This document shows positions 8,896 through 64,000 of a stretch of DNA of 64,000 nucleotides, piece by piece (within the stretch, counting starts at the first letter, position 1; every line of letters starts with the position of its first letter). Source of the stretch: Candidatus Campbellbacteria bacterium (lineage in GTDB: Bacteria; Patescibacteriota; Minisyncoccia; Phycocordibacterales; EsbW-18). A program made the position numbers and the translations under genes. The notes below the pieces were generated by a model. The model searched no databases and was not told the DNA's origin. It saw only the letters and a list, made by a program, of their open reading frames with translations. The stretch lies in assembly GCA_016699465.1 (NCBI GenBank), contig CP064977.1, positions 333,668 through 397,667 of the forward strand, read 5' to 3'.

Positions 8896-8950
8896 CATTA
8901 AAAACACGCCAGTTGGTGGGGATGGGGTGTATGAATACACTCCATCTTTC

Positions 8951-8987: not shown

Positions 8988-9006
8988 CACGTAACAAGTT
9001 CTCTCT

Positions 9007-10313: not shown

Positions 10314-10602
10314 TCGAGGAATTGACACGAGTGAACTGCTTCACTCGTGTCGGGACTCGAAAGCCGGAGCACGGCGGTGCGAGGCGGGGCTGCACAAATT
10401 TTCAGCAGAAAATTATGTGTAGCCGAGTCCTGTATCAATAGAACCTGTGACCGAGCCCTTCATAGAATCGACGGGACTCGAAAATACACAACCACACATT
10501 CACGATACACACGGACGTGCGGTATACTAAAGATGTTATTTAAAAAATATTTATTATTAAGTATATATAATTATGTATCCACACACACGATACACGAAAG
10601 GA

Positions 10603-11349
10603 ATGACGACGGGCGTTGTTGTTCTTGGAATGCTCCTCCTCGCAGGGGTTATCACAGTAGCCATTATTCGAGAAAAACTTGTCGCACAAGACTGGCAACA
10701 AGTTACCATCACTGGAACCGGAAAAGTTCCCTACACACCTGATCAGGCAATAATTACTCTAGGTGTTCATGTTGATAACGCAGCGACCGCACAAGCGGCA
10801 CTTACCAAACTATCTGATGTTACTTCAAAAGTAATTCCTGCTCTTACGGCTCTTGGTATTCCTACAGAAGATATTTCAACCCAAGCATACAATCTTCTTC
10901 CTCAATACTATTATCCAGATGGAAAACCAGGAGCAATTAGTGGTTATTCAGCCGATCAGCAACTTAACGTAAAACTTACACTCAAAAATGGAACATCAGA
11001 TGAGCGCGTTGGAAAAGTAATTGAAACAGCAAACGCGCAAGGTGTAAATCAGGTGATGGGCGTTTCATTTACTGCATCAAATGTTCAAGACCTTCAGCAA
11101 CAAGCCCTTCTCAAAGCTATTCAAGATGCAAAAAGTCGCGCACAAACAACTGCTGAAACTGCAGGTGTAACTCTTAAAAAGGTTGTTTCGTGGTGGGAAA
11201 ACCCAATTAATGTACCTGGACTTACGAATCCACAATACTCAGCCATGGGAGGGGGTATGGGCGGAGGAGATGCAGGCGTCACGCCAACAGTTCCTTCAGG
11301 AACCCAGGAAGTTATCGTGCAAGTCAATCTCAACTACTCAATTAAGTAA
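10603..11349 (+). CDS. SIMPL / DUF541 family periplasmic (26-kDa immunogenic protein-like) protein with an N-terminal membrane anchor
   Basis: ITGTGKVPYTPDQAIITLGV...YNLLPQYYYPDGKPGAISGYSADQQLNVKL...AKSRAQTTAETAGVTLKKVV...QEVIVQVNLNYSI matches the SIMPL/BP26 pattern. The weak RBS aaagga precedes ATG 10603. Confidence 0.7.
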   Translation: MTTGVVVLGMLLLAGVITVAIIREKLVAQDWQQVTITGTGKVPYTPDQAIITLGVHVDNAATAQAALTKLSDVTSKVIPALTALGIPTEDISTQAYNLLPQYYYPDGKPGAISGYSADQQLNVKLTLKNGTSDERVGKVIETANAQGVNQVMGVSFTASNVQDLQQQALLKAIQDAKSRAQTTAETAGVTLKKVVSWWENPINVPGLTNPQYSAMGGGMGGGDAGVTPTVPSGTQEVIVQVNLNYSIK

Positions 11350-11362
11350 GAGCACATCGTAC

Positions 11363-11394
11363 AAAAAAGACACCAGAAATGGTGTCTTTTTATT
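11363..11394 (+). terminator. Intrinsic terminator after the SIMPL gene
   Basis: aaaaaagacacc-agaaa-tggtgtctttttatt. Confidence 0.7.
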
Positions 11395-11540
11395 GTTGCG
11401 GGGGTAGGAATTGGTCACGAATCACTAAGTATTTTGCTCGCTACGCTCCCAAAATCCTAAGTGTTCTCGACCCCATCTCGCCAGCACTCAAACAATTGAG
11501 TGCTGGCTCCGACCTGCAATTCCTACGCCATAAAAACGTA
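11395..11540. repeat. About 145-bp element that begins with a copy of the 3'-terminal 19 nt of the neighbouring CAT-tRNA. It is bounded by a 10-bp inverted repeat (gtaggaattg...caattcctac) and has an internal perfect hairpin
   Basis: gttgcgggggtaggaattg at 11395-11413 equals 11589-11607 (the tRNA T-stem plus acceptor, read on the minus strand). gtaggaattg (11404-11413) pairs with caattcctac (11524-11533). The internal hairpin is ccagcactcaaacaattgagtgctgg (11471-11496). Confidence 0.45.
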
Positions 11541-11583
11541 AGAAGTAAAAATAGCTAGGCACAAAGCCTAGCTATTTTTATTC

Positions 11584-11658
11584 TGGTTGCGGGGGTAGGA
11601 ATTGCACCTACGACCTTCAGGTTATGAGCCTGACGAGCTACTACTGCTCTACCCCGCT
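11584..11658 (-). tRNA. tRNA-Met-like (anticodon CAT) with initiator-like traits (A11:U24 and an unpaired A1/A72), CCA encoded
   Basis: Minus-strand read aGCGGGG-TA-GAGC-AGTAGTA-GCTC-G-TCAGG-CTCATAA-CCTGA-AGGTC-GTAGG-TGCAATT-CCTAC-CCCCGCa-A-CCA. Confidence 0.7.
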
Positions 11659-48652: not shown

Positions 48653-51460
48653 TTATTTCGGTACGTACACCGAGTCGAACCTGTTGATGAGACCTCTGCT
48701 TTCCAGCGTTTCCTCGAGGCGATCTTGAATTTCACGATCTCGCCAGAATTTCTCTTTTTCCATATCGACTGATCTCGCTTTCGCACCGACAATTCCGTAT
48801 AGGAATTTCACAGCACCGGCAGTCTTATCATCGGTAAGCTTGCCGGCCGTGGTGTAGAAGCGTCCAAGAGCGGTGTTTAGGAAGTGGAGTTTATAAGCAT
48901 TGGCTCGGTAGCTCACAATGCCGTTCTTATTCGTATGCTCGGTTACTTCAAGCCAATCACGCAATCCGGGGACTGAATTCACGAACGGATACACTCTGCT
49001 GTTCTCGATGATCGGCTCTCCCATGAAGAGATTCTGTCCGGTGGCGGCTTCGATCGGATATTTAAGAAGCGGAGACAGTTCGCCAACGAAACTAGCCAAG
49101 GTTCTTTGCGGACTTCCTTTATAAAGTCGATTGATATCCTCAACCGGAAGACCGAGACCGTAGAGATATTGAGAGAATCCCTCTTTTTCGCCAAGTCGGA
49201 CCGGCAATCCTTCTCGCATGTACGGTGGCAAGTATTGGAATTCCTCTTTCGCTTTTTCTTTATCAACTTGTAGGTTATCTACGAGCTTGCCGATAGCACT
49301 GTACTTACCGGGCTGTTTTGTCATTTGCTCGAGCTGAAGCGGAATGTTGCCACGAGTCCATCGATAGAACGGCATGAGTCGCTTCATTATGTTTTGTTCG
49401 AATTTCGCAAGACCCTCCGGTGCATAGTCGAAGTGAAATTGGAACACTGCTTTGGCGGCATCTTCCGGTGCGTCACCCTTTATCAAGCGATCTATAAAAA
49501 GCGGTAGACGCAGACGGTTTTCAGTGATCTCCATCGCACCTTTTGGTAGATCCATCAATTTTCCGACAGCACCTTTACCGACATCTTTTTCGACCTCACG
49601 CATCACATCCAAGTAACCGGGCTGGCCAACGACTCCCAGCTTTTCGGTCATCTCTTTTATTTGTTGGTAGGTGTACTTAGTGCCTAGTTTTGTTGTGATT
49701 GATCCATTGAGACCTCGGGCGATTTGATCTCCTTGCAGATATCTCGCAGGGTTTTTAACCCCTGCTATCCAGTTATTGAAAATTCCACCGATCGAGTTCC
49801 TGACATGGAATGCTGGAAACCATCCGGTAACCGATCCTTTCCAGAAATTTAGTGTCTTGTCGTACAGCTTAAGGAACCCTTTGGTCGCTTCATCATTCGT
49901 AAGCACCTTATAAGTTTCCTCAACATGCTTAACGATCTGCTCAGGCAACAGCACTCCTTTTAATTGAGGCACGGTGCTCTCTACATACCGGATACCATTT
50001 TCAAAAATCGGTTTGACCGTTTCTTTGGTCATCATCTTTCCGGTGACAGGATTCCTTATTTCCTTAGTGACGACTTCACCTTGCTTGCCGAATTGTTTTC
50101 CAGCATCAGTTAAAAAGTCGTAGGTATTTACGGCTCTGATATGTTCGGCTTTGCGAGCACCGAATGCCTTAAATGCATCTTGCTCAAACAATCTCACGCC
50201 GTGAGTTCTACGGAAGTATTTATTGATATTGTCGATCGTGTCGTCGAGGGTTCGAGACTTTGCGAATGGCGTACTTACTCGCATCTTTCCAGCCAGTTCA
50301 TCGGCGACATCGCTATTCTTTTGTAAAAAGTCACGGCCTTCCGGTGTTAGGTAGTGACGTAGGTAATCCGGTAGCTCGGTGTGGAGTAATCCTTTTTCTT
50401 TTTCAACATTTGCAAATCGTTTGTGTTCATCTTGGATGTGACTGATGATGTTATCGATCGTGCTGTTTCCTTTGGCGGCGACTTGCTCGACTCCGTCCGT
50501 TGCTTTTGCAGGAAGCTCTCCCATCCCCTCAATCAGTCGGCCGACTCTCGTACCGGCATCTTTACCAAGTTCTTTTCTTGCGGTCTTGCCGAGCTCAATT
50601 GCTTCGTCAGCGGCCTTACCGACTTCGGACCGGGTCGCTTTGGTGAATTGAGAAAATTTGTCGACATATTCCTCTCCAATACGTCCCGGCAAGTCTTTGA
50701 TGCTTTTAAATGGCACGAATGCTTTACCGGCGAGGTCTTTTGCGCTCTCATACAGCTTGCCAACGACTGGCGTTTTTTCTACTAGCTTGTCTGCAACTTT
50801 GAATGGTGCTGTGACGGCTGATCGTGGAAGCACCTGTTTGCCAGCGAATTTCAGACCGCCTTTAGCAAGATACTTTTCGCCACCCTCTGCGAGTACCTTT
50901 TCGGCCAGAGCTTTTCGGGCGGCTGTTTCGCCGACTTCCTGTATCGACTTCTTGAGGAGTGACGTTCCGGATTTACTGAGCACGACCGTCCCAGCTTTGG
51001 TTGCAAGCTTCGCACCGGCCCCGTAGCCAAATGTGATATAGGTTGTCGGATCGAGCAGGACATCGGCAATAAAACCGCCGACTTTACTCTTGATACCAAG
51101 TGCTTCAGACGGATTGATGCGTTCTTGAATTCCGGCCTTGATTCCTTTTCCGCTTATGAGACCTCCGACAGCGTATCCGCCGGTATTGAGTACGTGGAGA
51201 ATTTTCTGTAGGGTCGATTCTTTTGGTTGAGTGGAGGAGACATCGAGATTATTTTGCAGTGCAAAGTCTCGCAACCCTTCGACAGTAGTCACGTTTGGTT
51301 TACCGGCCGGCTTCTCGACTTCGGTCGTTACATACTTTCCCTCGGCATTCTTTTGGTACTGCACGACGTTACCGGGTGCAGACTTTGGGAGTGGAGGAGA
51401 GACCGGCGCAGAACCGGTGTTTATGTATTTTCCAGTTTTCGGGTCTTTGATGTAGGCCAT
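48653..51460 (-). CDS. Large (935-aa) Lys/Ala/Gly-rich helical virion protein of unknown function (internal/ejection or tape-measure-like candidate)
   Basis: The N-terminal third is a low-complexity K/A/G/E-rich helical sequence (LAKGGLKFAGKQV...GKAADEAIELGKTARKELGKDAG). No enzymatic motif was recognised. It is the last structural gene before the lysis cassette. Confidence 0.4.
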   Translation of the reverse strand: MAYIKDPKTGKYINTGSAPVSPPLPKSAPGNVVQYQKNAEGKYVTTEVEKPAGKPNVTTVEGLRDFALQNNLDVSSTQPKESTLQKILHVLNTGGYAVGGLISGKGIKAGIQERINPSEALGIKSKVGGFIADVLLDPTTYITFGYGAGAKLATKAGTVVLSKSGTSLLKKSIQEVGETAARKALAEKVLAEGGEKYLAKGGLKFAGKQVLPRSAVTAPFKVADKLVEKTPVVGKLYESAKDLAGKAFVPFKSIKDLPGRIGEEYVDKFSQFTKATRSEVGKAADEAIELGKTARKELGKDAGTRVGRLIEGMGELPAKATDGVEQVAAKGNSTIDNIISHIQDEHKRFANVEKEKGLLHTELPDYLRHYLTPEGRDFLQKNSDVADELAGKMRVSTPFAKSRTLDDTIDNINKYFRRTHGVRLFEQDAFKAFGARKAEHIRAVNTYDFLTDAGKQFGKQGEVVTKEIRNPVTGKMMTKETVKPIFENGIRYVESTVPQLKGVLLPEQIVKHVEETYKVLTNDEATKGFLKLYDKTLNFWKGSVTGWFPAFHVRNSIGGIFNNWIAGVKNPARYLQGDQIARGLNGSITTKLGTKYTYQQIKEMTEKLGVVGQPGYLDVMREVEKDVGKGAVGKLMDLPKGAMEITENRLRLPLFIDRLIKGDAPEDAAKAVFQFHFDYAPEGLAKFEQNIMKRLMPFYRWTRGNIPLQLEQMTKQPGKYSAIGKLVDNLQVDKEKAKEEFQYLPPYMREGLPVRLGEKEGFSQYLYGLGLPVEDINRLYKGSPQRTLASFVGELSPLLKYPIEAATGQNLFMGEPIIENSRVYPFVNSVPGLRDWLEVTEHTNKNGIVSYRANAYKLHFLNTALGRFYTTAGKLTDDKTAGAVKFLYGIVGAKARSVDMEKEKFWRDREIQDRLEETLESRGLINRFDSVYVPK

Positions 51461-51466
51461 AGCTTT

Positions 51467-52804
51467 TTAATTTCCGATACCGAAGAGACCCTTCAAGAAG
51501 CTCTTACCGGTGTTGTATCCGGACTTCGCAAGGTTCGGTATCTGTTGAGTGAATACGTCTTTGACCCCAGCACCGAAGTCTTGAGCGGTTATCTTTGGCT
51601 GACCCGATTTCAATGCTTGAGCGGCGGCCGCATCCGCTTGCTGTTGGGCGTTTGCTTCAGCAACGATCTGATCTCGTTTCTGAAGTACTTGAGCACGGAT
51701 GTTTTGAGGCACGTTGCTTGCAGTGAAGTTAGGGTTGTTTAGAAGTTCGAGTGCGTATGCTTCTACGTCACTCGATGAACCGCCTCCGTCTGATCCGCTA
51801 CCAGACTTTGCACCGACTACTTTCGTACCGGCGATATCATGTACCGTTCCGGCCGGTGTACTGTTTGCGAGGTTTGCGAGTTGAATTGCTCGATCAATTA
51901 CGTCTTGGGCATCTTTCTTTTCCTCCGCTTTTCCATACTTGGAAGCTTCGACAATATTTGCGACATCTTTTTCTGAAGCACCGAATACTTGCTTCAAGAG
52001 ATCGCCAAGAACGCTGTATTGGTCTTTTTGGAATCCGAGTGTTTTTTCTGCAACAGTGAGTGGCAGTGTTGAATCCTCGTATTGCATGCCGGCCGCATCT
52101 TTCGCAGATGAATCTGCTACGCCGAGTTTGTCGGCCAGTCGGTTACGCTCGTTGAGAAGTTTCCGGTACTCGTCTATGAGCGGTTGTTTCTCTGAAGCGA
52201 CCAATCTTTGTGTTTGACTCTCGGTCACAAGGCCACCGCCTTGTACCATTCGGTTTCGGATGTCCTTCTCTGAGTCATCAATAGCAAGTTCCATCGATGC
52301 CAGACGATCATCTAAGCTCAAGAGATTTTTCTGCATCACATCAATACCTCGCTTCGCTTTTTCCTGCTCGTAGATGTCTGATTTTTTCGGCAGATTCTTG
52401 AGTGTATCGAGGTAGGCAGTCTGGTTGTCCTGCATGCTTTTGAGGGCAGAATCGAGACCGAGTTCAGATCGGTATTTTGTGAGCAAACTGGTCGAAGAAG
52501 GCACTTCAGCTCCGTATAGGGTGCTTTTGGCTGGCACGCCGCTCGTCCCAGGGCTCGAAATTTGGTCAATACGCTGGTTTACGGTCGAAGAAGGTGTCAC
52601 AGGTGCAGGTTTGGGTGAAGGGTTCGCCCCCGGGGCAACAACGGGTGAAGCCGGTGCTCCGGGCAAGCTCAAGCTCGCACCTGCGTATATCAGGTTCGGA
52701 TTCTTGATACTTGGATTCGCTTTCAGCAGGGCGTCGACCGTCGTCCCTTGCTGTTTGGCGATTCCCGAAAGGGTCTGACCTTTTTGTATTGTTATTGTTG
52801 CCAT
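51467..52804 (-). CDS. LysM-domain protein with a Pro-rich linker and a long coiled-coil region
   Basis: The N-terminus TITIQKGQTLSGIAKQQGTTVDALLKANPSIKNPNLIYAGASLSLPG is a LysM domain. Confidence 0.6.
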   Translation of the reverse strand: MATITIQKGQTLSGIAKQQGTTVDALLKANPSIKNPNLIYAGASLSLPGAPASPVVAPGANPSPKPAPVTPSSTVNQRIDQISSPGTSGVPAKSTLYGAEVPSSTSLLTKYRSELGLDSALKSMQDNQTAYLDTLKNLPKKSDIYEQEKAKRGIDVMQKNLLSLDDRLASMELAIDDSEKDIRNRMVQGGGLVTESQTQRLVASEKQPLIDEYRKLLNERNRLADKLGVADSSAKDAAGMQYEDSTLPLTVAEKTLGFQKDQYSVLGDLLKQVFGASEKDVANIVEASKYGKAEEKKDAQDVIDRAIQLANLANSTPAGTVHDIAGTKVVGAKSGSGSDGGGSSSDVEAYALELLNNPNFTASNVPQNIRAQVLQKRDQIVAEANAQQQADAAAAQALKSGQPKITAQDFGAGVKDVFTQQIPNLAKSGYNTGKSFLKGLFGIGN

Positions 52805-52810
52805 ATGTTT

Positions 52811-53023
52811 TTAAGTAAGGGGTGCGTACCTCCACGCTCCGTTAAAAAATACGTAGAACCGACGTGTCGCTCCGTTCTCGTACAGTGCAAAGCTGATCTG
52901 ATACTTTGGCGGATCAGTCGGCACACTGTTCAAGATCGGAATGTCCCGCAGAATTGAGAGTAGATACCCAAGCGACGGATCAAGTTTGTTTTGCTGGTTT
53001 GGATTGTTGTCGTGTGGGTTCAT
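52811..53023 (-). CDS. Small hypothetical phage protein
   Basis: 70 aa; overlaps the next gene by 4 nt. Confidence 0.3.
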   Translation of the reverse strand: MNPHDNNPNQQNKLDPSLGYLLSILRDIPILNSVPTDPPKYQISFALYENGATRRFYVFFNGAWRYAPLT

Positions 53024-53274
53024 AGTGGTTGCTCTCCGATTTCTGGTTCGACTACAGGTTCCTCTTTAGGAGGGACCGGCAGTTTGTCGAATTCGGAGAT
53101 GATCTCGCTTATCTCTGCAAGCGATCTTTGTCTGAGATCGACCTCTTGTTCAAGTTCCTCTTTTTGTTGGCGGAGGACATCCATGTTGAGAATCGTGACC
53201 GACTCAGTGTTGTCCTTTTTTCTCGCAGTCTTTTCATCGATTCTTTCGATTGTGAATTTTGATGTAGGTTCCAT
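53020..53274 (-). CDS. Small acidic coiled-coil phage protein
   Basis: 84 aa, E/K-rich. Confidence 0.3.
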   Translation of the reverse strand: MEPTSKFTIERIDEKTARKKDNTESVTILNMDVLRQQKEELEQEVDLRQRSLAEISEIISEFDKLPVPPKEEPVVEPEIGEQPL

Positions 53275-53285
53275 AGTGATGTTGA

Positions 53286-55088
53286 TTACTTAATAGTTCG
53301 ATCCGGTATGTAGATCGTGGACATGTCTCGGAGTCCCATGTCCCACTCTCCGATGAATCCGGATGGAGACCAGATTTCGACCTTGATCTGAATCTTTTTC
53401 GCTCGTGCGTTGAATCGCACAAGCTTGTTTACCGCACCTTTATTTTCGTTGCCTTTGATTACTCCGGCTTTCTTGAATGGCGTAACGAGAAGGTACGAAG
53501 TGTTGTTGTATTCGTTTCCGTTCTCGGAGTTGTAGAGCGTTTCGTCTACGTAGACTCGGTTGAGTGCGGTATCGATGCTTGCCACGTGTCTGATTTGTCC
53601 GGCACCGCTTCCTGCTACGACCGTCACTTCATCGCCGACTTCGAAGTTTCCGATGCCGAACGAGACCGTGAAGTAGGTGCTCGTGCCTCCGGAAGCGAAT
53701 GCAGTGTACTTTTGATATTTCTCGGTCGTGTTGTATTTCACGACAAATCTAGCAAAGGATGTGTCGATGAGAGGTTTCCAGAAGTTCAATACTTCTTGAA
53801 TGAATCGCTTACGTCGGTACGGCTCATCATCGAATATCGGGCTAACGACAGTCGCATTCCAGTTGTATGGTCGATACGATCCGGTATCGTGATTCACATC
53901 GAGCAGATACCGATCGCTTCCGCCACCCTTGTCCCAGCCGACAAAGAATTGATCACTGTTTGGCGTAAGCTGGATGCTTCCGACCTGAACCACGCCGGTA
54001 CCGCTGATATTCGTGGTGCCTCCATGCGAGAGTGTGTTTCGGAAGTAGAGAGCATTGGTTATAGGGTTGTATACCCAGATACCTCCGGCGTAGTAGCGTT
54101 TTTCCATATTGAAGCCATGTGCTTTGACGCCGATCAGGATCACGCCGTTATGTACTTTCACTGCGTTCTGGTTGATCTGGAACGAAATGTCGCCGGCTTC
54201 GATGTCCGGGAAGCGATTAAGTTTTACGAGTCCGGACCCGTCGAAGTAGTTGATCCATCCATCACCAGTGATGAGATATAGGCGGTTCTTGTCTACGACA
54301 CCGGCCGGACACGAGACGTTCGGAATACGAAGCACACGATTGTATGTTCCAGAGATTCCGTCCCAGAAAAAGAGAGCAGAACCATTTGTTGTCAGGTCAT
54401 GTGCGCCGATCACGAGCCAGTCAGTAAGCACTGCAAACCATCGGATATCGAAATTTTGCGGAAGTGTGATTTTGGGAGGATTCGGGTTGCCGTGCCACGT
54501 TAGGTTTACGGTGTCCCATGCACAGAGCATATTGTTGAATCCTGCAAGCACATACTTTAGGAATTTTGTGAGCGGTACGTTGCCTTGTGAGAACAGCACA
54601 CCGCTTCCGAGTGATTGCCATGCATCGTTCCATGAATTGGAGGAGGCATCGTAACGTCCGAGAGAGTTTCCTATCGTGAAGTAGAGATATCCTTGTTCCG
54701 TTCCGATGACCGGCGTGTTAAAGACGCTGTCACCCATAAGCGAATAGGCTCTGCCTCCCGGAAAGTAATAGCTATGCACATGCACCCAGTTCGGATATTC
54801 ATATCTGAAGAATTTTGCCGTGTTGCCCCAGCCCTGGGTTATCATCCAGTTGTACATTTGTGTACCACCCATGTTCTTGCCGAAGAGTGCTCCGTCAATC
54901 GGCATCGAGTTGACCTCTGCGTTGATGTTCACGTCTAGGTTCTTAAACAGTTTGTGGGACACACGCAGGTACGGAGGTGTTTTTTCAAGATCAAGATTCT
55001 GCGACCACCAAAAAGTACCCTCGGCATTTAGATTTCCGAGTCCCTTCTCGAATCTTGATGTTTTCCAAACTTTTTTAGGTAGTGCCAT
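53286..55088 (-). CDS. 600-aa Trp/Gly/Asn-rich beta-rich virion (tail?) protein
   Basis: No motif recognised. Its composition resembles tail tubular or distal-tail proteins. Confidence 0.35.
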   Translation of the reverse strand: MALPKKVWKTSRFEKGLGNLNAEGTFWWSQNLDLEKTPPYLRVSHKLFKNLDVNINAEVNSMPIDGALFGKNMGGTQMYNWMITQGWGNTAKFFRYEYPNWVHVHSYYFPGGRAYSLMGDSVFNTPVIGTEQGYLYFTIGNSLGRYDASSNSWNDAWQSLGSGVLFSQGNVPLTKFLKYVLAGFNNMLCAWDTVNLTWHGNPNPPKITLPQNFDIRWFAVLTDWLVIGAHDLTTNGSALFFWDGISGTYNRVLRIPNVSCPAGVVDKNRLYLITGDGWINYFDGSGLVKLNRFPDIEAGDISFQINQNAVKVHNGVILIGVKAHGFNMEKRYYAGGIWVYNPITNALYFRNTLSHGGTTNISGTGVVQVGSIQLTPNSDQFFVGWDKGGGSDRYLLDVNHDTGSYRPYNWNATVVSPIFDDEPYRRKRFIQEVLNFWKPLIDTSFARFVVKYNTTEKYQKYTAFASGGTSTYFTVSFGIGNFEVGDEVTVVAGSGAGQIRHVASIDTALNRVYVDETLYNSENGNEYNNTSYLLVTPFKKAGVIKGNENKGAVNKLVRFNARAKKIQIKVEIWSPSGFIGEWDMGLRDMSTIYIPDRTIK

Positions 55089-55093
55089 AGGTT

Positions 55094-55726
55094 TTATACG
55101 AGACTGCTTCTCGGAATTGAGGCCTGATCATCTGCGGCCGCCATGCGTGCAAGTTCTTGATCACGCCATTTGCCGACCATGATCCGTTCGAAGTTGCTTT
55201 CAGCTTGGCGTTCGAGTTCCGTGTCGCCCTGCTGGTTGTAGTACATCTTTTTGCCCCACTCGACGTACGCTTGGTGATAGAGTTTTTCGACTTCCGGTTC
55301 GTCGCTGTCTGATGCGAAGTCATCCGATATGCGGACAAAGACGAGCATCATTGCATCGCCGTCTGCGGTTGGAGTTGTTACCGGATAGAAGTAACCGCCG
55401 AGCGTGTACACAATGTGATCGTTGTATCGGTCTCTTGCTCGGTAATCGACGAGCGTGAACGGACGCTTGTCGTCGCCGATCTTTAATTCCACGAATGCCC
55501 GGTAGTTTTCAGGGACCGGGTATTTCGGTTGATTTGCAACGGTCGTGTACGGCTGTTCGGTCTTGAGATAGTCCCAGTAGTCAAACGTCTGGTTTTTATC
55601 CTCAGGCGGCCGCCAGCTTTGCACCTTTTCATCGGCACGCTGTACCCACGAGTTTGCAAGTGTGTCATCGATCGTCTGATCGTCGACCTCGTTCTTTATT
55701 GCTTTTCGGATGTCGCCTCTGTTCAT
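55094..55726 (-). CDS. Hypothetical virion protein (210 aa)
   Basis: Located between the tail-fibre genes and the 600-aa protein. Confidence 0.3.
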   Translation of the reverse strand: MNRGDIRKAIKNEVDDQTIDDTLANSWVQRADEKVQSWRPPEDKNQTFDYWDYLKTEQPYTTVANQPKYPVPENYRAFVELKIGDDKRPFTLVDYRARDRYNDHIVYTLGGYFYPVTTPTADGDAMMLVFVRISDDFASDSDEPEVEKLYHQAYVEWGKKMYYNQQGDTELERQAESNFERIMVGKWRDQELARMAAADDQASIPRSSLV

Positions 55727-55732
55727 AAGCGT

Positions 55733-56047
55733 TTAGATGTCATCACGGATGATGATTGATAATTGTTTGAACCCGGTCTGAATTTTTGCATCAGGGAACG
55801 TCACCTCGACCTCACCGAGATACGTTCCGACCGTGTTCGTGTCGGAGGCCGTCCAGTTGTATCGGCATTTTCCTTTAGTTGCGTCAGTGATAACGCATGC
55901 CACGCCGTTAATCTTTACCGATCCAGTGGAGGAGTCCTTCATGTAGAACTTCACCGTGCATCCGGTTAAATCCACCGGCGCACCGTCTTGTGTCAGACTG
56001 AATTCCAGTGGAGGACGGGTGTCATTTTGTACGATTTTGATGCTCAT
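55733..56047 (-). CDS. Small all-beta (Ig-like) phage structural protein
   Basis: IVQNDTRPPLEFSLTQDGAPVDLTGCTVKFYMK resembles the N-terminal Ig-like domains of phage baseplate/receptor-binding proteins. Confidence 0.3.
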   Translation of the reverse strand: MSIKIVQNDTRPPLEFSLTQDGAPVDLTGCTVKFYMKDSSTGSVKINGVACVITDATKGKCRYNWTASDTNTVGTYLGEVEVTFPDAKIQTGFKQLSIIIRDDI

Positions 56048-57345
56048 AGGTTTATGTCTTGATTATTGCCCGGAAGAGTCACATCGGCCTTGGCGTTTTG
56101 AAGCTGTTGATCTTGTCGGGCAGTCTTGACCTCAATACTGCTTTTAGATGTTGTAAGACCGAACGTTTCTCTGGCCGAGAGCATCAGCACCGATACTTTC
56201 GCCGACAGGAATTCGATTGCGATCTTTAGTCCGGGAGGAATTTTCAGGATGTCCCACACGTACTTCCACGTCCTCGATACCAATCCTCGAATGTCGAGGA
56301 GGTATGTCCATGCTTTTCCGATTCCGAGCAGGATATCGAGTCGATACGTCCAGACTTTTGCAATGTGGCTTAGGATGTCGAATGCGTAAGTGATCGACTT
56401 TGAGACAAAGCTCGTGATATCCCATAGGTAGCTGGTTACTCTTGATGCGAGTGTCCGGACGTCCCATCTGTAAGTCAGCACTGTTGCTATAAGTCCTCTG
56501 ATATCGAACAGGTATGTCGATACTCTGGTCGCAAGACTTCTCATGTCGAGGAGGTACGTCATCTGCTTTACTGCACTCATCAGCACATTGAACACATACT
56601 CAGTGCTTTTGCTTACTGTGCCGGCCATGTCGAAGAGGTACTGCACGGCCTTGGTCGCAAGGTTTCGGATATCGATCACGTATGTCCACGTCTTACTGAT
56701 TAGGTTTCGGATATCTAGTAGGTACGCAGTCGACTTTTCGGCGAGATTTCTCAGGTCGAGTCGGTACGTCATGATCTTTGCGACCACGTCACCAATGTCG
56801 ATCAAGTAGGATGTGAGCTTTGTCGCAAGGTTTCTTATATCTAGCCGGTAGATTGTTTCTCTGGTGGCCGACAGGAACGAATCAAACACATAAGTTATCG
56901 TCTGGCCGATCGTGATCAGGATGTCACTCAGATACGTCGTGCTTTTAGTCGCCAGATTTCTCACATCGAGCTTGTACGTCATTGTCATGATCGCACCTCC
57001 GATAATGTCGATCAGATATGTGATTTGCTTTGCGATGAGTTGCAGTCCGTCCCAGAGGTATGTGGATGTCTTGTCGATCAGGCTTCGCATGTCGAAGACA
57101 TACGTCAGGGCTTTTTCAGCAAGAGCGTACACGTCCATGAGATACGTTTCTATTTTCCCAGCGAGATTTCGGATATCGGTCAGGTACGTTCGCACAGCTT
57201 CCACCGTTATCATCTGGTCGAAGACATACGTGATTGGTTTTGCTACCAATCCGAACGCATCGAGCACATAGTTCATCACCTTACTCACGACTGAAGAGCC
57301 GGTGTCATTGAGTCTTGCACTGTTGAATTGGTAGGAGTTGAACAT
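56044..57345 (-). CDS. Fibrous repeat protein: about 26 tandem copies of a 14-residue motif T-Y-[LV]-x-D-[IML]-R-x-L-A-x-K-x-x (likely a tail-fibre shaft)
   Basis: Read directly from the translation: TYLLDIRNLATKAV, TYRLDLRNLAEKST, TYVIDIRNLATKAV, TYLLDMRSLATRVS, TYLFDIRGLIATVL and further copies. The hydrophobic residues at repeat positions 2/6/9/13 give a 4-3-4-3 heptad spacing. The DNA shows a diverged 42-bp periodicity. Confidence 0.6.
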   Translation of the reverse strand: MFNSYQFNSARLNDTGSSVVSKVMNYVLDAFGLVAKPITYVFDQMITVEAVRTYLTDIRNLAGKIETYLMDVYALAEKALTYVFDMRSLIDKTSTYLWDGLQLIAKQITYLIDIIGGAIMTMTYKLDVRNLATKSTTYLSDILITIGQTITYVFDSFLSATRETIYRLDIRNLATKLTSYLIDIGDVVAKIMTYRLDLRNLAEKSTAYLLDIRNLISKTWTYVIDIRNLATKAVQYLFDMAGTVSKSTEYVFNVLMSAVKQMTYLLDMRSLATRVSTYLFDIRGLIATVLTYRWDVRTLASRVTSYLWDITSFVSKSITYAFDILSHIAKVWTYRLDILLGIGKAWTYLLDIRGLVSRTWKYVWDILKIPPGLKIAIEFLSAKVSVLMLSARETFGLTTSKSSIEVKTARQDQQLQNAKADVTLPGNNQDINL

Positions 57346-57351
57346 AAGTGT

Positions 57352-58905
57352 TTATCCAGTTGATGGGATGTTTGTGCCTCTCACTGAGTTGGTTCCTTGC
57401 AGTCCGATCTGTCCGGTTACGCCATCCTTGCAGACATTTGCGATTGCCAGATTGAAGTCATCGCTCGTACTCTGTTCACGGATGTGATAGGCGGCCTTAT
57501 TCGCTTGGGTCGCTTGGCAGTTATTCGAGGAGATAACGTTATAGGTTGAGTAAACCGATCCGTTGTTGGAGAGATAGATACTGTGTGACGTGTTGTTGGT
57601 GCTTCTGGAAGCATTGTCGATGGCGTTTCCGGTGACGGTGTTGTAGGAAGAGCCGTACAGGTAGATTCCGTGACCTCCGCATCCGAAGATGTGATTGCCA
57701 GTTACCACGTTATTGATCGTGGTACCGCTTCCGTGATAGAGAGCGATGCCTTGGCTCGTCGCCCATGCGATCGTATTTCCGGAGATGACGTTGTACTTGG
57801 TTATGTTTGAGCTGTTTCCGATAATCATTCCCCAGCTATCGCCGTAGAGATGATTGCCTGTCACAGCATTTCTTTGACCTCCGACTATGTACACTCCGTA
57901 GTTTGTGCTGGTGAAGATGGCATTGCCGGAGATAGCTTCTCGCCAAGCGTTGCTTAGATAGAAACCGTAGCCGTTGCTTCGGCTAACATTGCCGGTCATC
58001 GTGTTGTAGTTGCATCCGCTGTCATACACGCCATAACCGTTTGAAGTCAGAACATTTCCAGTGATCGTGTTGTGCTGTGAGCTGGTGAAGAGTCCTATTC
58101 CGGTTCCGGTGTTGTCGTGGATGAAGCAATTTCTGATGATGCTTTCCTCGGTGCCGATAACTTTCAGGCAGTCGAGGCGAGCACCGGTGAGCCAGCAGTT
58201 CTCAATGAGGATTCGTTTGTGTTTGTTTGAGCTCGTACCCCAGAGTACAAGTGGACTGGAATTTCCGGAAGTTTGATTTGCTTGATTGCCGTCGATTTTC
58301 AAGTTTCGAATGACGATATTTGAGTACGGTGTTGTACCTCCATCTCCCACACGCAAGATGTCGCCGAGGTTGCTGGCATTGGCCGCTTTTATAAGTGTCG
58401 CCGCCCCTTCACCCTCAAACACGACATTGTCTTTGAGAATTTCGACAAGACCGGTTAGTGTGTACGTTCCTTTTTTCAAACGAACGATACCGCCACCGGC
58501 TGGCAAGTTGCTAATCGCTTCATTTATCTCCGTTTGATCATCTGTTCCATCGCAGTTGTAATCTCCTGAATCGTCCGTTGCGACTATGATCTCGGTTCGG
58601 GTTTGGAAGTCGTCAAAGAGCTTGGCTGTTACCAAGAGTTCTATTCGGCTGTTTTGCGCCCATGCTTGGGCGGTTGTGTTTTCTTTGGCTCGTTCGATTG
58701 TGAACGCATCTGTCGATTTGGCAGTTACTTTCACAATTTCTCCCACGCTTGGGTCGCTCGTGTAGAGCGTGGCGTGGAATGGAGCCGCCGGAAACTTTGC
58801 ACCGTCGCCGGTCTGCACGTTCACGGTTGTCGCACCCGATGTCAGAGGGTTATCCGTGATTGTGCTCTTGGCGTTATTCTTTTTTGTTAAGAATGTTTTA
58901 GCCAT
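57352..58905 (-). CDS. Tailspike/tail-fibre protein with a right-handed parallel beta-helix (pectate-lyase-like) repeat region
   Basis: Tandem NxxxG[NT]xxxG rungs such as NTITGNVLTSNGYGVY, NTMTGNVSRSNGYGFY, NAVTGNHLYGDSWGMI, NVISGNTIAWATSQGI and NVVTGNHIFGCGGHGIY. Confidence 0.65.
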   Translation of the reverse strand: MAKTFLTKKNNAKSTITDNPLTSGATTVNVQTGDGAKFPAAPFHATLYTSDPSVGEIVKVTAKSTDAFTIERAKENTTAQAWAQNSRIELLVTAKLFDDFQTRTEIIVATDDSGDYNCDGTDDQTEINEAISNLPAGGGIVRLKKGTYTLTGLVEILKDNVVFEGEGAATLIKAANASNLGDILRVGDGGTTPYSNIVIRNLKIDGNQANQTSGNSSPLVLWGTSSNKHKRILIENCWLTGARLDCLKVIGTEESIIRNCFIHDNTGTGIGLFTSSQHNTITGNVLTSNGYGVYDSGCNYNTMTGNVSRSNGYGFYLSNAWREAISGNAIFTSTNYGVYIVGGQRNAVTGNHLYGDSWGMIIGNSSNITKYNVISGNTIAWATSQGIALYHGSGTTINNVVTGNHIFGCGGHGIYLYGSSYNTVTGNAIDNASRSTNNTSHSIYLSNNGSVYSTYNVISSNNCQATQANKAAYHIREQSTSDDFNLAIANVCKDGVTGQIGLQGTNSVRGTNIPSTG

Positions 58906-58923
58906 AGCTCATCGATCTTTCGT

Positions 58924-59703
58924 TTACGCCGCCGTGTCACCCTCGGACTTCACTTGGGTTGAATTGGCGGTTACTGCACCGGCTCCAGCTGGCCACGTTA
59001 GGCGATACCAGAGTCCGAAGTTTCCAGCGGACGCAATGTCACCGTGTTCCATGCCGGCCACCTTGCTTGCCATGTTTCCTCCCTCGGCATCTATCGGAGA
59101 TCCGCCGGAGTAAACTCTGCCGTACCAGATAAAGCTGATCTTTTTGTTTATTCCGATGGTTCCTCGGGTAGTGCCTCCCGATCCTTGCCGGATCGTCACA
59201 AGGCGTGATCCAGAGAGCGATGCCACATACGCACCGTAGAGTTTGGAGAACGTCAGAGCACCCACGACTTCGGTGGTGCCGTTCAGTGTCAGGTTTTCCG
59301 TCTGTCTGTTTCCGGATGCATCCTCTCCGACAACCGTCACTTGTCTGGTGTCAGCACCGTCGGAAACAACGGCCACGACAGCGTTTGCGGAAAATGCCGA
59401 CATGTTTCCTTGAGCACCGTCATCATCATCGGCATGATCGATTCCGAATCCGAACGAGAGGGCGGCGTTGGTCGGCTGTGACTGTAGCCACGTCACGACG
59501 TTCTGCCACGAAAGCGATCCGTGTGTGTTCTTGCGGAAGGCTTTTCGGTATTCAGTGCCTCCGGCCGCCGCTTCGTCACCGGTTATATCGGTGAAGAGAT
59601 TGTTGTCGACGTTGTCCACGACTTCTACTGCCGTGATTTCACCGCCGTCTGAGTCAACACTGTTTGACTCATATTCTTTTAAGTCTGCTGATACGATTGC
59701 CAT
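58924..59703 (-). CDS. Hypothetical Gly/Ala/Asp-rich phage structural protein
   Basis: Located between the capsid module and the tailspike. Confidence 0.3.
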   Translation of the reverse strand: MAIVSADLKEYESNSVDSDGGEITAVEVVDNVDNNLFTDITGDEAAAGGTEYRKAFRKNTHGSLSWQNVVTWLQSQPTNAALSFGFGIDHADDDDGAQGNMSAFSANAVVAVVSDGADTRQVTVVGEDASGNRQTENLTLNGTTEVVGALTFSKLYGAYVASLSGSRLVTIRQGSGGTTRGTIGINKKISFIWYGRVYSGGSPIDAEGGNMASKVAGMEHGDIASAGNFGLWYRLTWPAGAGAVTANSTQVKSEGDTAA

Positions 59704-59738
59704 AAGATTGGTGTGTTATTAGCGACCTCATGTTCGGT

Positions 59739-60137
59739 CTATTTGCCTTGCAGAAGTTCGATCAGACGGTCTTTTGTTTCGGACCCGTCCAGTTCGACAT
59801 TTTTTTCACCAGCCAAGGTTTGTAATTCCTTTTTGGTGAGCTTCTGCAGTTCGCCGTCGACCGTCGGCGGATCAATCGGCGATGATTCCTCGGAGACTTT
59901 CCAGAAATCGATGCCGTAAGTTGGGAGACCTTCTAACTTGGAAACGTGTTCCTCGTTTGAGGTCTCGAATTGTCCGTCCGCGAATTGTGCGTACTCGCCC
60001 GGGGTGTCTCCGACCTTGAGGCCTCCCTCGAATATCGGCTGGGCGGGCTTGAGTACGATTCGCAGACTTTTGATGTGTGAATTGAATTTAGCCATAAGTA
60101 AGTTTGGGTGATTAATGTTTGTAATTTCGGCCTCCAC
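59739..60137 (-). CDS. Small head-associated protein with a C-terminal Rho-N/SAP-like helix-hairpin motif
   Basis: LTKKELQTLAGEKNVELDGSETKDRLIELL resembles the Rho_N-type motif that is common at the C-termini of phage capsid-associated proteins. Confidence 0.35.
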   Translation of the reverse strand: MEAEITNINHPNLLMAKFNSHIKSLRIVLKPAQPIFEGGLKVGDTPGEYAQFADGQFETSNEEHVSKLEGLPTYGIDFWKVSEESSPIDPPTVDGELQKLTKKELQTLAGEKNVELDGSETKDRLIELLQGK

Positions 60138-60199
60138 CCTTACTCCTGGCCTCCACGTGAGTGAAAGCCAGCGAGTAAGAGCAGAGACGCTTATTCGAT

Positions 60200-61423
60200 T
60201 TAGGCGACGCCCTTGAGCAATGCGTTCTTTTCGAAGTTGACTCTCTGCAAACCGGCTTCGGTCTTATACTGATCGACTTCCTCGTCAGCATCGTTGTCCT
60301 GAATGTTGGTTTCGAGCATGGTGTCTCGACCATTCAGTGGGCAATGCTTGAGCGTGGAGAGATCGACCACTACACCGATACCGGCGTACTGGTTGTCGAA
60401 CATCGGGTGACGGACAATGTTCAGCGTTCCGAATGACGACTGGAACTTACGGATTTCGACTCCGAAGGTCTTATCGCTCGGTACGATGTACATCTTGGAA
60501 GTTGCAAAGCTTTCCAAGTATCCGAGCACGGTGTTACCGCAGAAGAAATACTTCTCGGCTGATCCGTACTTGAACGCATAATTCTGGAGGAACGATCGGA
60601 ATTCAGCTTCGGTTAGAGCTGAAGCCGCCTCGTCCTGGACGTTGCCGGCGGCTGTGATCGCTTCCAAGATTCCTCCGGAGAGGCGAAGCGGTTTGCCGTC
60701 GGGACCGGTCACTTCTTTCTTTTCACCGAACCAGTACGCACGCTCGATTTTCTTTGCTTGTTCAATACCATGCTTTGCACGCAGGTACTTCAAGTCCGCA
60801 CCGGGGTTACCGGACGGATAGAGCTTCGAGGCGTTCTCAGTTGCAGTGACGCCGAATTTGGTCTTGAAGATTTGGGTGAAGTTAGTGACCTTCACGAGTT
60901 TAGTCGTGTTGGAATCGCCAGACTTCGATCCTTCCTCAAAGGCCGGACCGATGACCAACAGCCAATCGTTATCTAAGATAGCGGCGGCCGCTGTTGCACC
61001 GGCTCCACGAGCTACTGTGAGGGTATTCGTGGAGTAATTGACTGAAGTGACTCGCATGATTTCACCAGTACGGGTGTTTTTCACCAGATCGTACTTTGTG
61101 AAGATCGATGCTCCTGGGCTGTCTACGACCAACGCCGTGTCACCGGATGCGTATCCGGCACCGTTGTTGATTCGAGCCCAGACTCCGGAATACTGATCCT
61201 CATATTCAGTGAATTCCGGGTTGTACACGACTCTCTTTTGAAGAGCCATGCCCTTGAACTTGCCACCGCCGTCACCGATCTTTCCGATTTGGGTCAAGAA
61301 AGCTGTGAGCGGCGATTCTCCGGGTTCAAGCAGGAAGATTTTGTCGTCGACATCGGGAATACGCTGTGACTGTTCGATAGTCAACGTATCTCTCGTGCCG
61401 ATGATGTGTGCAGGTTCTGCCAT
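60200..61423 (-). CDS. Putative major capsid protein
   Basis: 407 aa, directly downstream of the acidic scaffold-like gene in the portal-scaffold-capsid order. The fold was not verified. Confidence 0.5.
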   Translation of the reverse strand: MAEPAHIIGTRDTLTIEQSQRIPDVDDKIFLLEPGESPLTAFLTQIGKIGDGGGKFKGMALQKRVVYNPEFTEYEDQYSGVWARINNGAGYASGDTALVVDSPGASIFTKYDLVKNTRTGEIMRVTSVNYSTNTLTVARGAGATAAAAILDNDWLLVIGPAFEEGSKSGDSNTTKLVKVTNFTQIFKTKFGVTATENASKLYPSGNPGADLKYLRAKHGIEQAKKIERAYWFGEKKEVTGPDGKPLRLSGGILEAITAAGNVQDEAASALTEAEFRSFLQNYAFKYGSAEKYFFCGNTVLGYLESFATSKMYIVPSDKTFGVEIRKFQSSFGTLNIVRHPMFDNQYAGIGVVVDLSTLKHCPLNGRDTMLETNIQDNDADEEVDQYKTEAGLQRVNFEKNALLKGVA

Positions 61424-61479
61424 AGGTTGTGGTTGTTACTGCCGGCAACCGCTCACGAGACCTCAAAATCTTATAAGCG

Positions 61480-62322
61480 TTACCGGACTTTATTTGGGTT
61501 AATACTTTCACCGACAAGATCATCGAATGGATTCTCTTGGTCGGTTTTGCCTTTGGCGGCCGGTTGGCCACCGCCGACTCCTGATGCATTCTCTCGTTCG
61601 AGGTTTTTGACTTCCTCTTTCTTGAGAGCTTCGTCAGCCGCTTTCTTTGTCTGCGAATCCTTGGTTACGGAATCGTAGGCCAGTTGAAGCGTTCGGGCAT
61701 TGAACGGAAGCTTTTCTTTCTCGATCAAGTCGAGAATCTGGTGACCGATCTCAGGAGTTCTGAAGTCCTCGTGATCCTCGATCCACTTGTCGATCTCGGC
61801 CTTGGTCTTTGCTTTCGTTTCCCGTTCCTCGAGCTTCTTATCGAGGAGAGTGTCTATGTCCGGTTGATCCTCTGGCTCTGCATCGCTGGCTTTCATAGCT
61901 TCGGCAATACTTGCTTTCAGCTGTTCGGCTAGTTGCGGATTCTTGACCAGTGCCTTATCGAGTACTGAGAGAAACTGTTGGTTTTTCTCGCTTGCGGTTT
62001 TGAGATCGTTGATCTCTTTGCCTTGATCGATAATCTTGGTCTGAGCTTCGTCATACGAGCGTTTAGCATCATCCTCGCTCTTGAACTTGCCCCAGAAGGT
62101 CTTGTCGCCCTCGGGCTTTTTGTCTTTGTCCTCGGGACTTTCGCCTTTATCGGCTGGCGTACCGCCGGATTGATCCTCGGGTTTCGAGGCGTCCGGTTTC
62201 TTGTCAGGTTGTTCCTCTTTCGAGGTGCCCGACGGGATTGAATTGACCGGTTGTTCCTTGCCGACTGCATCGTCAAATGACGGTGTATTCGGTTCGGCGC
62301 CGGATTCGTTTGGTTTTTCCAT
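61480..62322 (-). CDS. Putative scaffolding protein (acidic, coiled coil)
   Basis: Highly charged D/E/K-rich sequence between the portal-like and capsid-like genes. Confidence 0.45.
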   Translation of the reverse strand: MEKPNESGAEPNTPSFDDAVGKEQPVNSIPSGTSKEEQPDKKPDASKPEDQSGGTPADKGESPEDKDKKPEGDKTFWGKFKSEDDAKRSYDEAQTKIIDQGKEINDLKTASEKNQQFLSVLDKALVKNPQLAEQLKASIAEAMKASDAEPEDQPDIDTLLDKKLEERETKAKTKAEIDKWIEDHEDFRTPEIGHQILDLIEKEKLPFNARTLQLAYDSVTKDSQTKKAADEALKKEEVKNLERENASGVGGGQPAAKGKTDQENPFDDLVGESINPNKVR

Positions 62323-62516
62323 AGGCGTGTTTATTGCAGATTGATCCTTGGTTTCCGATCACGGTCGGAACGTCGGCGTCTGCTGTTAATAAAACCGAGC
62401 CCCTTTTCGGGAGGCTCGGTTGGTCTCTCAAGATGTAGGAAATCGCCAGAAATCCCATCTTAAGAGGCCAGCTGAACCCCTCAAAAAGTTTGGCGATTTC
62501 CTTTGGTTGTTTGGTT

Positions 62517-62756
62517 TTATGTTGGTGCTTTCATATGTTCATCGTGAATAGCTTTGATCTGCAGGAGAATGATTCCGAGTCCTTCGGCTCGACCTTGATA
62601 AAACCGAATCTCGTCTGCAGTCAGTTGTTTGTTGAGTAGCCACGTCTTTGTGGTATCAAGTTCGTTCGCAATAAGCTCGGACAACGCTTCAAAATACTTG
62701 GTTTCGTACAAGTTGCTGATCGTCGCTTCTATGTCTTTGTGAAGTGTTTTGGTCAT
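62517..62756 (-). CDS. Small helical phage protein
   Basis: 79 aa. Confidence 0.3.
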   Translation of the reverse strand: MTKTLHKDIEATISNLYETKYFEALSELIANELDTTKTWLLNKQLTADEIRFYQGRAEGLGIILLQIKAIHDEHMKAPT

Positions 62757-62761
62757 ATGTG

Positions 62762-64000
62762 TTATTGCCTCATTGCGTTACCGAGAACCGCACCCATTTC
62801 GTTACCGGGGAGTCCTTGCTCTGGCACTACGTCGGGTGGTGTGTCGATCGCAGGTGCATCACCGGCCGGCATTCCGGTATCAGTTGGATTCATTGGGTCA
62901 ACCGGAGGCGTGACCGGCTGTTGTTTTATTTCGCTAATGTAGTTGTCTGGTTCCCAGCCATAATCCTCAAAGAGCTTCATTAGGATTTTGAATTTCTTGA
63001 CGGAGTATGTCGTACCGGTTTCCGCATCCACGATCTGGTCTACGTCTTTGATCAGTCCCCAGAGTTCCAAGTCTTTTGACTTCTTAAGTTCAGAGGAAGA
63101 AGCAAGAGCCGATGTTGATTCGAGTGATATCTCATATTCATCGTCAAAGAGTCCTTCAATGTTTTCCACTTCAGGGGTTATAAGTCCGTGTCGGATCATG
63201 ATTGCTACGGCTTTGTCCGGAACAACGCTTTTGGTCGTCCAGAATTGTTTGACCATGCAGATCCAGTGTTCAAAGTGCATGATGTACGAACCTCGAAGCA
63301 TAATCAGGAAGAGCTTCACGCCCTCTAGTGTTGCCTCACGCATAAACGAGGCGACTGTTGCTGTTTCTCTTGAGTCCTTGCCGGCCGTCGTTGTGTATTC
63401 GTCTACACCTACGGCGATTCGCATTGCTTCTTTGATGTGATTCGGCTCGATAAATGCAGAGGAGTTCACGTCGCCAAACTTCAGCTCTTTGACTGAGTTC
63501 GGATCATTCGTCCATAGGATTCCAAGCGGTCTTACAGTGATGCTTGATTGCTTGTATCCGGGGAGAGCTACTGGTGCCGCCGCAATCATGCTGTGTATTT
63601 TCATCGTGATTGCATCCACTCTCTGGTTGGTCACAGAATTCAGGAGTTCTTGCAAATGGTCTACGAGCTTCGGGATACCGAGCCAGTAAAATGAGAATGG
63701 TCGGGGGAAGAAGCCAGTTCGTGAGTAGGGCTTTTGCTGGTGGTCGTATGGGTTATCACCGTCCTTGATCTCTATCGGTGTGCCGTCCATCGGCAGGAAC
63801 ACGCAGATATGGTCGTCAGTCCATCGCTCTACGACTTCGAAGAGCTTATCGTCTGTCGTTGGCATTTGGACCGGGTTGTTTGGGTTGCCTTGGATCGGAG
63901 AGGACGCTTTGGTTGTCTCTCGGAGATTCTTTCGTAGTTCTAGGAGGACTTCTTTTCTCACGTAGGCATAGTCGGTAGTGTCACCGCCGGACTTTGTTAC
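62762..64000 (-). CDS. Putative portal protein, N-terminus beyond the window edge
   Basis: The frame is open to position 64000 (the first codon of the track ORF is GTG). The C-terminus is a Pro/Asp-rich flexible tail, and the gene sits upstream of the scaffold/capsid genes. Confidence 0.4.
   Translation of the reverse strand, partial: VTKSGGDTTDYAYVRKEVLLELRKNLRETTKASSPIQGNPNNPVQMPTTDDKLFEVVERWTDDHICVFLPMDGTPIEIKDGDNPYDHQQKPYSRTGFFPRPFSFYWLGIPKLVDHLQELLNSVTNQRVDAITMKIHSMIAAAPVALPGYKQSSITVRPLGILWTNDPNSVKELKFGDVNSSAFIEPNHIKEAMRIAVGVDEYTTTAGKDSRETATVASFMREATLEGVKLFLIMLRGSYIMHFEHWICMVKQFWTTKSVVPDKAVAIMIRHGLITPEVENIEGLFDDEYEISLESTSALASSSELKKSKDLELWGLIKDVDQIVDAETGTTYSVKKFKILMKLFEDYGWEPDNYISEIKQQPVTPPVDPMNPTDTGMPAGDAPAIDTPPDVVPEQGLPGNEMGAVLGNAMRQ

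Follow-up and report, generated by a model that had tools for sequence, protein, structure and literature searches.

A gene in a virion gene cluster of a Candidatus Campbellbacteria bacterium encodes a protein of 433 amino acids made mostly of tandem 14-residue units. This protein is probably an accessory virion fibre, a rod with a beta-solenoid shaft and a C-terminal anchor, of an SU10-like short-tailed prophage of Candidate Phyla Radiation (CPR)/Patescibacteria. The gene lies on the minus strand of the window, that is, the whole 64,000-nucleotide stretch that was analyzed (positions 333,668 to 397,667 of contig CP064977.1); its coordinates and those of its neighbours are given in Table 1. 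The array had been noticed in an earlier examination of the bare letters and their open reading frames (the sequence-only reading), which took it for a coiled-coil shaft. We consider the gene to be real because it has more than 40 positional orthologs with intact frames and 54-96% identity.

The motif Y-x-x-[D/N] occurs 25 times in the protein (residues 26, 40 … 362) at an exact spacing of 14 residues and with no insertions or deletions, which gives 25 units instead of the approximately 26 counted previously. Three of the four units quoted as examples at that time are present verbatim, whereas TYLLDIRNLATKAV is missing from the protein. The consensus unit is TYLLDIRNLAAKVT, with Tyr2 conserved in all 25 units, Asp5 in 24, Thr1 in 17, Lys12 in 16 and Leu9 in 14; position 8 is rich in Asn, Gly and Ser and is turn-like. 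Self-identity of the protein was 0.27-0.31 at lags of 14, 28, 42 and 56 residues and about 0.05 at other lags, and the autocorrelation check that had been proposed placed the lag-14 identity 16.5 standard deviations above that of shuffled sequence. No other open reading frame of the window showed a comparable periodicity. The mean unit-to-unit identity within the array was 35% for the protein and 47% for the DNA (maximum for the DNA, 69%), and Tandem Repeats Finder did not detect the array in the DNA. This is in agreement with the earlier statement that the repeats are conserved as protein and diverged as DNA, and it indicates that the array is old and has been kept by selection on the protein. 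Units 7, 9 and 10 (residues 109-122 and 137-164; TYLIDIIGGAIMTM and TYLSDILITIGQTI-TYVFDSFLSATRET) depart from the consensus and each of them is kept in all orthologs. The rod is therefore not uniform, and it could be kinked or make docking contacts at these units.

To find the orthologs, the adaptor protein encoded near the repeat gene was used as query against collections of metagenomes and genomes, and the gene two positions upstream was then read. Whatever their shaft type, and over lengths from 363 to more than 1889 amino acids, all of them have in common the C-terminal 60 or so residues (…IKVAIEFLSAKVSVL.LSAKE…K.DINL), a conservation that starts at about residue 368, within unit 25. Entropy over 21 orthologs was 0.46 for the C-terminus, 0.58 for the N-terminal 24 residues and 0.85 for the array, position 13 being the most variable one of the unit. 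Shafts of the 14-residue type were found in proteins of 363 (20 units), 378 (21 units), 432/433 (25 units, by far the commonest), 447/448 (26 units) and 489 amino acids (29 units), and 25 units are present in most orthologs, down to 54% identity. All insertions and deletions among them are of whole units, that is, multiples of 14 amino acids, and they occur at several different sites; length variation by whole repeats, suggested beforehand as something that recombination might allow, was thus observed when relatives were compared (20 to 29 units). In other lineages the same C-terminus follows an 18-residue repeat (h-x-E-x-h-x-h-x-D-x-h-x-K…) in proteins of 475, 604 and 710 amino acids, and giant versions with this second repeat have from 1,038 to more than 1,889 amino acids, one of them with N-terminal Kelch propellers. 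The ortholog of 710 amino acids retains the window type of N-terminus on its different shaft, and others show the alternative N-terminus MALAPVLNQAQTRW. A conserved C-terminus, an exchangeable shaft and a variable N-terminus together argue for an exposed appendage anchored by its C-terminus. Such predicted C-terminal anchoring is a polarity opposite to that of classical tail fibres.

Two AlphaFold2 models were obtained. Model 1, of the whole protein with an alignment of 34 full-length members of the repeat family described below, had a mean predicted local distance difference test score (pLDDT) of 58.6, and its residues 160-330, at 73-86, formed unbroken strand. Model 2 was restricted to residues 1-220 and used an in-register alignment of 33 family segments; it gave strand across residues 21-213 and no helix, with pLDDT of 60-68 (mean 60.8). 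AlphaFold2 thus predicts the array as continuous beta structure whose closest solved folds are parallel beta-helices. Structure prediction had been named beforehand as the arbiter between a coiled coil and a beta-solenoid, and it speaks against the coiled coil. The composition of the array is of the beta type as well (T/I/V/Y/F/W 41%, Glu 1.7%). Hydrophobic residues occupy unit positions 2, 6, 9 and 13 in 25, 22, 17 and 12 of the 25 units, respectively, and are also frequent at positions 3 (20/25), 4 (23/25) and 10 (24/25), without forming a narrow stripe. The family position equal to Asp5 is D or N throughout, as is usual for the polar ladders that line the turns of solenoids. Homologous units elsewhere have a fixed Gly or Pro (ITGRYDI, xVGDxL and, in Aeromonas phage BUCT551, APYGLRPGVIADLT). 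Tandem units of fixed length that change by whole units only, as expected of a beta-solenoid, are what the orthologs display. At one or two units per rung of 0.48 nm a solenoid would be a rod of about 12 or about 6 nm, instead of the shaft of approximately 50 nm estimated for a coiled coil.

The window protein is a member of a large family without a name. The sequence-only reading had asked whether the family exists elsewhere. An exhaustive phmmer search against 1.84 billion representatives of 50% identity clusters matched at least 254 of them at E<=1e-3, of which 85 reached E<=1e-10, the best E-value being 4.7e-45; the similarity of the window protein to this family is significant over many units and in the same register. 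Family proteins are 72 to 7,009 amino acids long; in almost every one the repeats form 14-periodic arrays, of about 10-60 units or, in one case, about 200. The family unit is [Y/W/F]-[D/N]-[I/V]-R-x-L-[V/A]-x-K-[T/S/D]-x-T-h-x, so that L/F/W4-D5-I6-R7 of the window unit corresponds to Y-D/N-I-R of the family and Tyr2 to its last hydrophobic position. The architecture was surveyed in 150 proteins (149 listed representatives plus P0001). An N-terminal region of at least 80 amino acids precedes the first periodic stretch in 135 of them, and 75 of these 135 regions group together by similarity in a single cluster. Most proteins end soon after their last periodic region, and a C-terminal tail of at least 80 amino acids, commonly about 170-185, is present in 48 of the 150. 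The window protein, with just 24 residues ahead of the array, is atypical for the family. Tails of about 170-185 amino acids in P0002, P0014 and P0009 had no Pfam match; our guess is that they are neck-protein-like. Super-repeats were looked for in 60 arrays; the best lag was 4 or 5 units in 29 of these, with inconsistent values, and the window protein showed none. Higher-order periods of 4 or 5 units were seen in P0140, P0081, P0089, P0032, P0116 and P0044, for instance as 'DMSG' in every fourth unit, and may have arisen by duplication of blocks or go with a supertwist of the structure.

That the motif is not a described family, as had been supposed, agrees with the database searches. The best Pfam match of the window protein (0.012) was below the cut-off, NCBIfam gave none, phmmer found none in the PDB at E<=10, and the best PHROG match (1.7e-4) was to a family without known function. 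Scans of nine family members against Pfam, PHROGs and NCBIfam likewise gave no usable family, and the family members had no match in the PDB either. The non-repeat domains of family members did not resemble other window proteins. With the repeat protein as query, tblastn had no match among 50,697 phage records, and a word-indexed homolog search gave one match. A profile search that used alignment A2 was without a match, probably through a failure of candidate selection on repeats. Literature searches on a 14-residue phage repeat and on PDB 8JOV, an entry matched by the neighbouring tailspike, returned nothing relevant. A candidate relative, orf378 ('minor head protein') of Bacillus phage phiNIT1, matched a family member at 5e-4 and was rejected as a periodicity artefact; it is a heptad-like coiled coil of Ser, Thr, Asp and Lys without the aromatic-D/N motif. 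Proteins of this type probably also underlie phrog_19577, to which two family members had matches.

Among cultured phages, the 1,438-residue tail-tip protein gp47 of Aeromonas phage BUCT551 ends in about 22 of the 14-residue units bearing Pro and Gly, and gp15 of the KVP40 type (L010 5594-6946; 451 amino acids) has about 15 units of the form xVDWNxRxxVxSxx after its gp15 domain. The gp15 of T4 has about 270 amino acids. KVP40 gp15 is annotated only as a tail sheath stabiliser/completion protein, with no mention of the repeat extension. We found a gene of the phrog_13135 family no more than three genes away from the 14-mer gene in 6 of 6 loci, namely the window and L001, L006, L007, L008 and L009, and these five come from unrelated phage types. 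In KVP40 the corresponding gene, KVP40.0353 (L010 7001-7549), lies directly after gp15, between it and the small terminase gene. Proteins of this family start with MAIVxADLKxY and have no known function, and the family profile found no relative in the PDB. The window copy has an insertion of about 120 amino acids in comparison with forms of 170 amino acids, and other relatives have a different insertion, of about 80 amino acids, near the N-terminus (alignment A6). The gene for P0002 is located a few genes ahead of a tape-measure gene and that for P0001 a few genes ahead of a tail tube gene. Together with KVP40 gp15, these placements indicate that the recurrent neighbourhood is the head-neck junction and not the distal tail.

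The genes around the repeat gene form a virion module. On the minus strand they encode, in order, a portal, a 280-residue protein, an SU10-type major capsid protein, a protein of 132 amino acids, the phrog_13135-family protein of 259 amino acids, a beta-helix protein of 517 amino acids and the repeat protein; then follow the 104-residue BppU_N-like protein, an SU10-type adaptor, a putative nozzle of 600 amino acids and proteins of 445 (LysM) and 935 amino acids. The portal match to SU10_portal was weak (1.2e-3). Capsid, portal and adaptor proteins of the SU10 type in one cluster are as found in the module of SU10-like (Kuravirus-type) podoviruses. However, no cultured phage has a capsid protein that reaches 30% identity to the one of the window, so the phage is a distant relative and not a Kuravirus. 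In SU10, the long fibres are attached to the adaptor and the short fibres to the nozzle (PMC9509320). The gene adjoining the repeat gene does encode a beta-helix tailspike, as had been proposed, with an N-terminus that matches the chain 'putative tail fiber' of PDB 8jov at 3.4e-10; this neighbour and the virion module setting support the earlier idea of a fibre or rod-like structural protein. On the other side, the start codon of the BppU_N-like gene overlaps the stop codon of the repeat gene (ATGA), and in those orthologous loci that allowed both genes to be read, it again comes immediately after the shaft gene. The same module was found within large contigs of CPR/Patescibacteria genome bins (loci L088-L106; window 48653-63961) assigned to Saccharibacteria, Parcubacteria, Gottesmanbacteria, Magasanikiibacteriota, Nomurabacteria and Paceibacterota, and in a few that bear the label Gammaproteobacteria. 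These contigs reach 1.52 Mb, and one record of 743 kb is titled 'chromosome: 1'. Location inside such contigs suggests a prophage, and from its distribution the SU10-like module seems to be a widespread prophage of CPR bacteria.

Several observations weigh against a C-terminally anchored beta-solenoid rod. Model 1 contains helices at residues 19-113 (pLDDT 35-54), both models are monomer predictions of moderate confidence, and Foldseek found no significant match in PDB or BFVD. Conservation among the 21 orthologs has its strongest harmonic at a period of 3.5 (positions 2, 5, 9 and 12), which is helix-like. In addition, the array of KVP40 gp15 is C-terminal to its virion domain, a polarity opposite to that proposed for the window protein. 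The helices of model 1 and the period of 3.5 also speak for an alpha-helical coiled coil in a two-heptad (4-3-4-3) register, the architecture of the sequence-only reading, as do the length of the unit (14 = 2 x 7), the hydrophobic positions 2, 6 and 9, and weak Pfam similarities, far below threshold, to the helical families Mer2 and Spectrin_3. However, the alignment was poor in the helical region of model 1, where the array was paired with unrelated N-terminal domains of other proteins, and with the in-register alignment the residues drawn as helix become predicted strand. The confidently predicted part consists wholly of beta structure, and its matches are beta-helices. The period of 3.5 is explained equally well if the unit has a 7+7 pseudo-symmetry (TYLLDIR / NLATKAV). 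Position 13, which a heptad would need, is hydrophobic in fewer than half of the units and is the most variable one, the array is poor in Glu and rich in beta-branched and aromatic residues, position 8 is rich in N, G and S, and elsewhere in the family Gly or Pro stands at fixed places in the unit. A coiled coil is in our view highly improbable.

A beta-structured but intertwined trimeric shaft, either a triple beta-helix or a triple beta-spiral, would leave the function as a virion fibre unchanged. Most phage fibres are trimers, the adenovirus shaft has a unit of 15 residues, and six or seven hydrophobic positions per 14-residue unit are much to bury in a narrow single-chain rung; the predictions for the single-chain fold are, as said, of monomers. 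We regard this architecture as rather unlikely, but deserving of more weight than the coiled coil. In the third alternative the protein would act inside the particle or in its assembly, for example as an ejection protein, a length ruler or a scaffold. The constancy of 25 units in most orthologs could mean a measured length, and the gene is located among head and neck genes and not at the end of a tail module. Against this, the same C-terminal end bears 20, 21, 26 or 29 units, the 18-residue repeat or Kelch propellers (in proteins of more than 1,800 amino acids), a variability typical of exposed host-interaction proteins and not of internal rulers, and the globular domains of the family sit at the free end. 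An internal role thus appears improbable.

In the accessory fibre that we favour, each 14-residue unit would make one rung, or half a rung, of the beta-solenoid. Hydrophobic ladders would arise from the stacking of the invariant Tyr and of the [L/F/W], Ile and Leu positions, and a polar ladder, located at a turn, from the D/N position. By its conserved C-terminus the rod would dock on a conserved virion part encoded by a neighbouring gene, either the BppU_N-like protein or the adaptor/neck region, with the N-terminal end facing outward and the number of units setting the reach. This free end, bare in the window phage and furnished with binding domains in relatives, would meet the host surface. 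Since the window rod has no distal globular domain, the rod surface or the short N-terminal head would itself contact the host envelope. The phrog_13135 protein would be a functional partner, as a docking piece or as a tip or assembly factor. Going further, and only tentatively, the array and the phrog_13135 protein may constitute an undescribed and widespread two-gene module for a virion appendage, an adjustable thin beta-solenoid rod that plugs into the neck or adaptor by either end, occurs from CPR prophages to KVP40-like myoviruses and is exchangeable with the 18-residue shaft. If so, the array would define a class of phage fibre shaft that is structurally new, namely a solenoid of one chain with 14 residues per rung. 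Repetitive fibre shafts are already known in phages; this unit has no family name, solved structure or annotation, in spite of being present in hundreds of protein clusters and, concealed within 'gp15', in a group of phages known for a long time. A defined profile would allow many 'hypothetical' phage proteins to be annotated. The ortholog series, in which the same anchor carries 20-29 units, an 18-residue shaft or Kelch domains, represents a natural experiment on the reach and specificity of an appendage, and to our knowledge the phage-host contacts of CPR/Patescibacteria have been little studied. A rigid rod that changes its length in steps of 14 residues could also serve as a building block in protein design.

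Three further features of the window were recorded. The protein of 132 amino acids (59739-60137, minus strand), encoded between the capsid and phrog_13135 genes, matches several PHROGs with its C-terminal 40 or so residues, some without function and others annotated as endonuclease VII or Arc-like repressor; this segment resembles a short DNA-binding tail of the helix-extension-helix kind. Base composition shifts at about position 48000 of the window: to the left, G+C is 0.40-0.45 and the AT skew is near zero, and to the right, in the structural module, G+C is 0.47-0.51 and the AT skew is strongly negative. Five tRNA genes (Thr-GGT, Thr-CGT, two Met and Asp-GTC) are clustered at 8735-11658.

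Table 1. Features of the repeat gene and its neighbours (window positions), and loci with the alternative shaft
Feature	Position	Strand	Basis
Repeat protein gene (putative fibre shaft), 433 aa	56044..57345	minus	intact ORF; >40 intact positional orthologs
N-terminal 24 residues (MFNSYQFNSARLNDTGSS...), conserved short head	57274..57345	minus	entropy; place of globular domains in homologs
25 tandem units of 14 aa (residues 25-374), putative stacked beta-solenoid rungs	56224..57273	minus	
C-terminal ~60 residues and stop (…KIAIEFLSAKVSVLMLSARETFGL…QDINL), conserved putative anchor	56044..56223	minus	lowest entropy
SU10-type major capsid protein	60200..61423	minus	Pfam SU10_MCP 1.4e-40
259-aa phrog_13135-family protein, partner of 14-mer repeat proteins	58924..59703	minus	phrog_13135 2.2e-10
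517-aa tailspike: tail-fibre N-terminal domain and right-handed beta-helix	57352..58905	minus	Pfam Beta_helix 4.7e-26, NosD; phrog_8469 tail fiber
104-aa BppU_N-like (Ig-like) protein	55733..56047	minus	Pfam BppU_N 9.3e-13
210-aa SU10-type adaptor protein	55094..55726	minus	Pfam SU10_adaptor 2.1e-14
Loci with 18-aa-repeat shaft	L013/L069 3553-5685; L054 4256-5683; L080, L085, L075		

Among parallel beta-helices and beta-solenoids, we compared the array with the SufB/SufD core, pectate-lyase-type tailspikes, autotransporter passengers, pentapeptide-repeat proteins and curli CsgA. The window period is of 14 residues, whereas theirs are of 5 (20 per coil), 18 or about 22-25, and the window unit is far richer in bulky hydrophobic residues, has no catalytic or binding cleft and matches none of their Pfam families. 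The A(D/N)LXX pattern of pentapeptide repeats, with four per coil, is absent from the array. The triple beta-spiral shaft of adenovirus and reovirus is similar in its short repeat, of 15 residues, and in having a turn position rich in Gly and Pro, the counterpart of which would be position 8 (N/G/S) in the window protein and Pro-Gly in the BUCT551 variant.

With respect to phage appendages, the window locus resembles SU10 in encoding a BppU_N/Ig-like module beside the capsid and adaptor genes; in SU10 this is gp10, an Ig-like protein whose location is unknown and whose gene lies between those of the capsid and the adaptor (PMC9509320). The head fibre gp8.5 of phi29 is similar in that such a base is joined to a repetitive fibre, but in the window the BppU_N domain is encoded by a separate downstream gene and is not an N-terminal fusion. 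Moreover, the phi29 fibre is a helix-turn-helix supercoil whereas the window fibre is predicted to be beta. KVP40-type phages, in which the array is likewise followed by a phrog_13135 gene, are the only well-known cultured group that we found with both. Their array, however, is fused C-terminally to a neck protein, whereas the window protein is free-standing and has a C-terminal anchor of its own. The polarity that we propose is that of T4 Hoc, the C-terminal part of which binds the particle while the N-terminal modules point outward, and both have a modular length. The modules of Hoc are Ig-like domains on the capsid, whereas those of the window protein are 14-residue units predicted to be the rungs of a solenoid.

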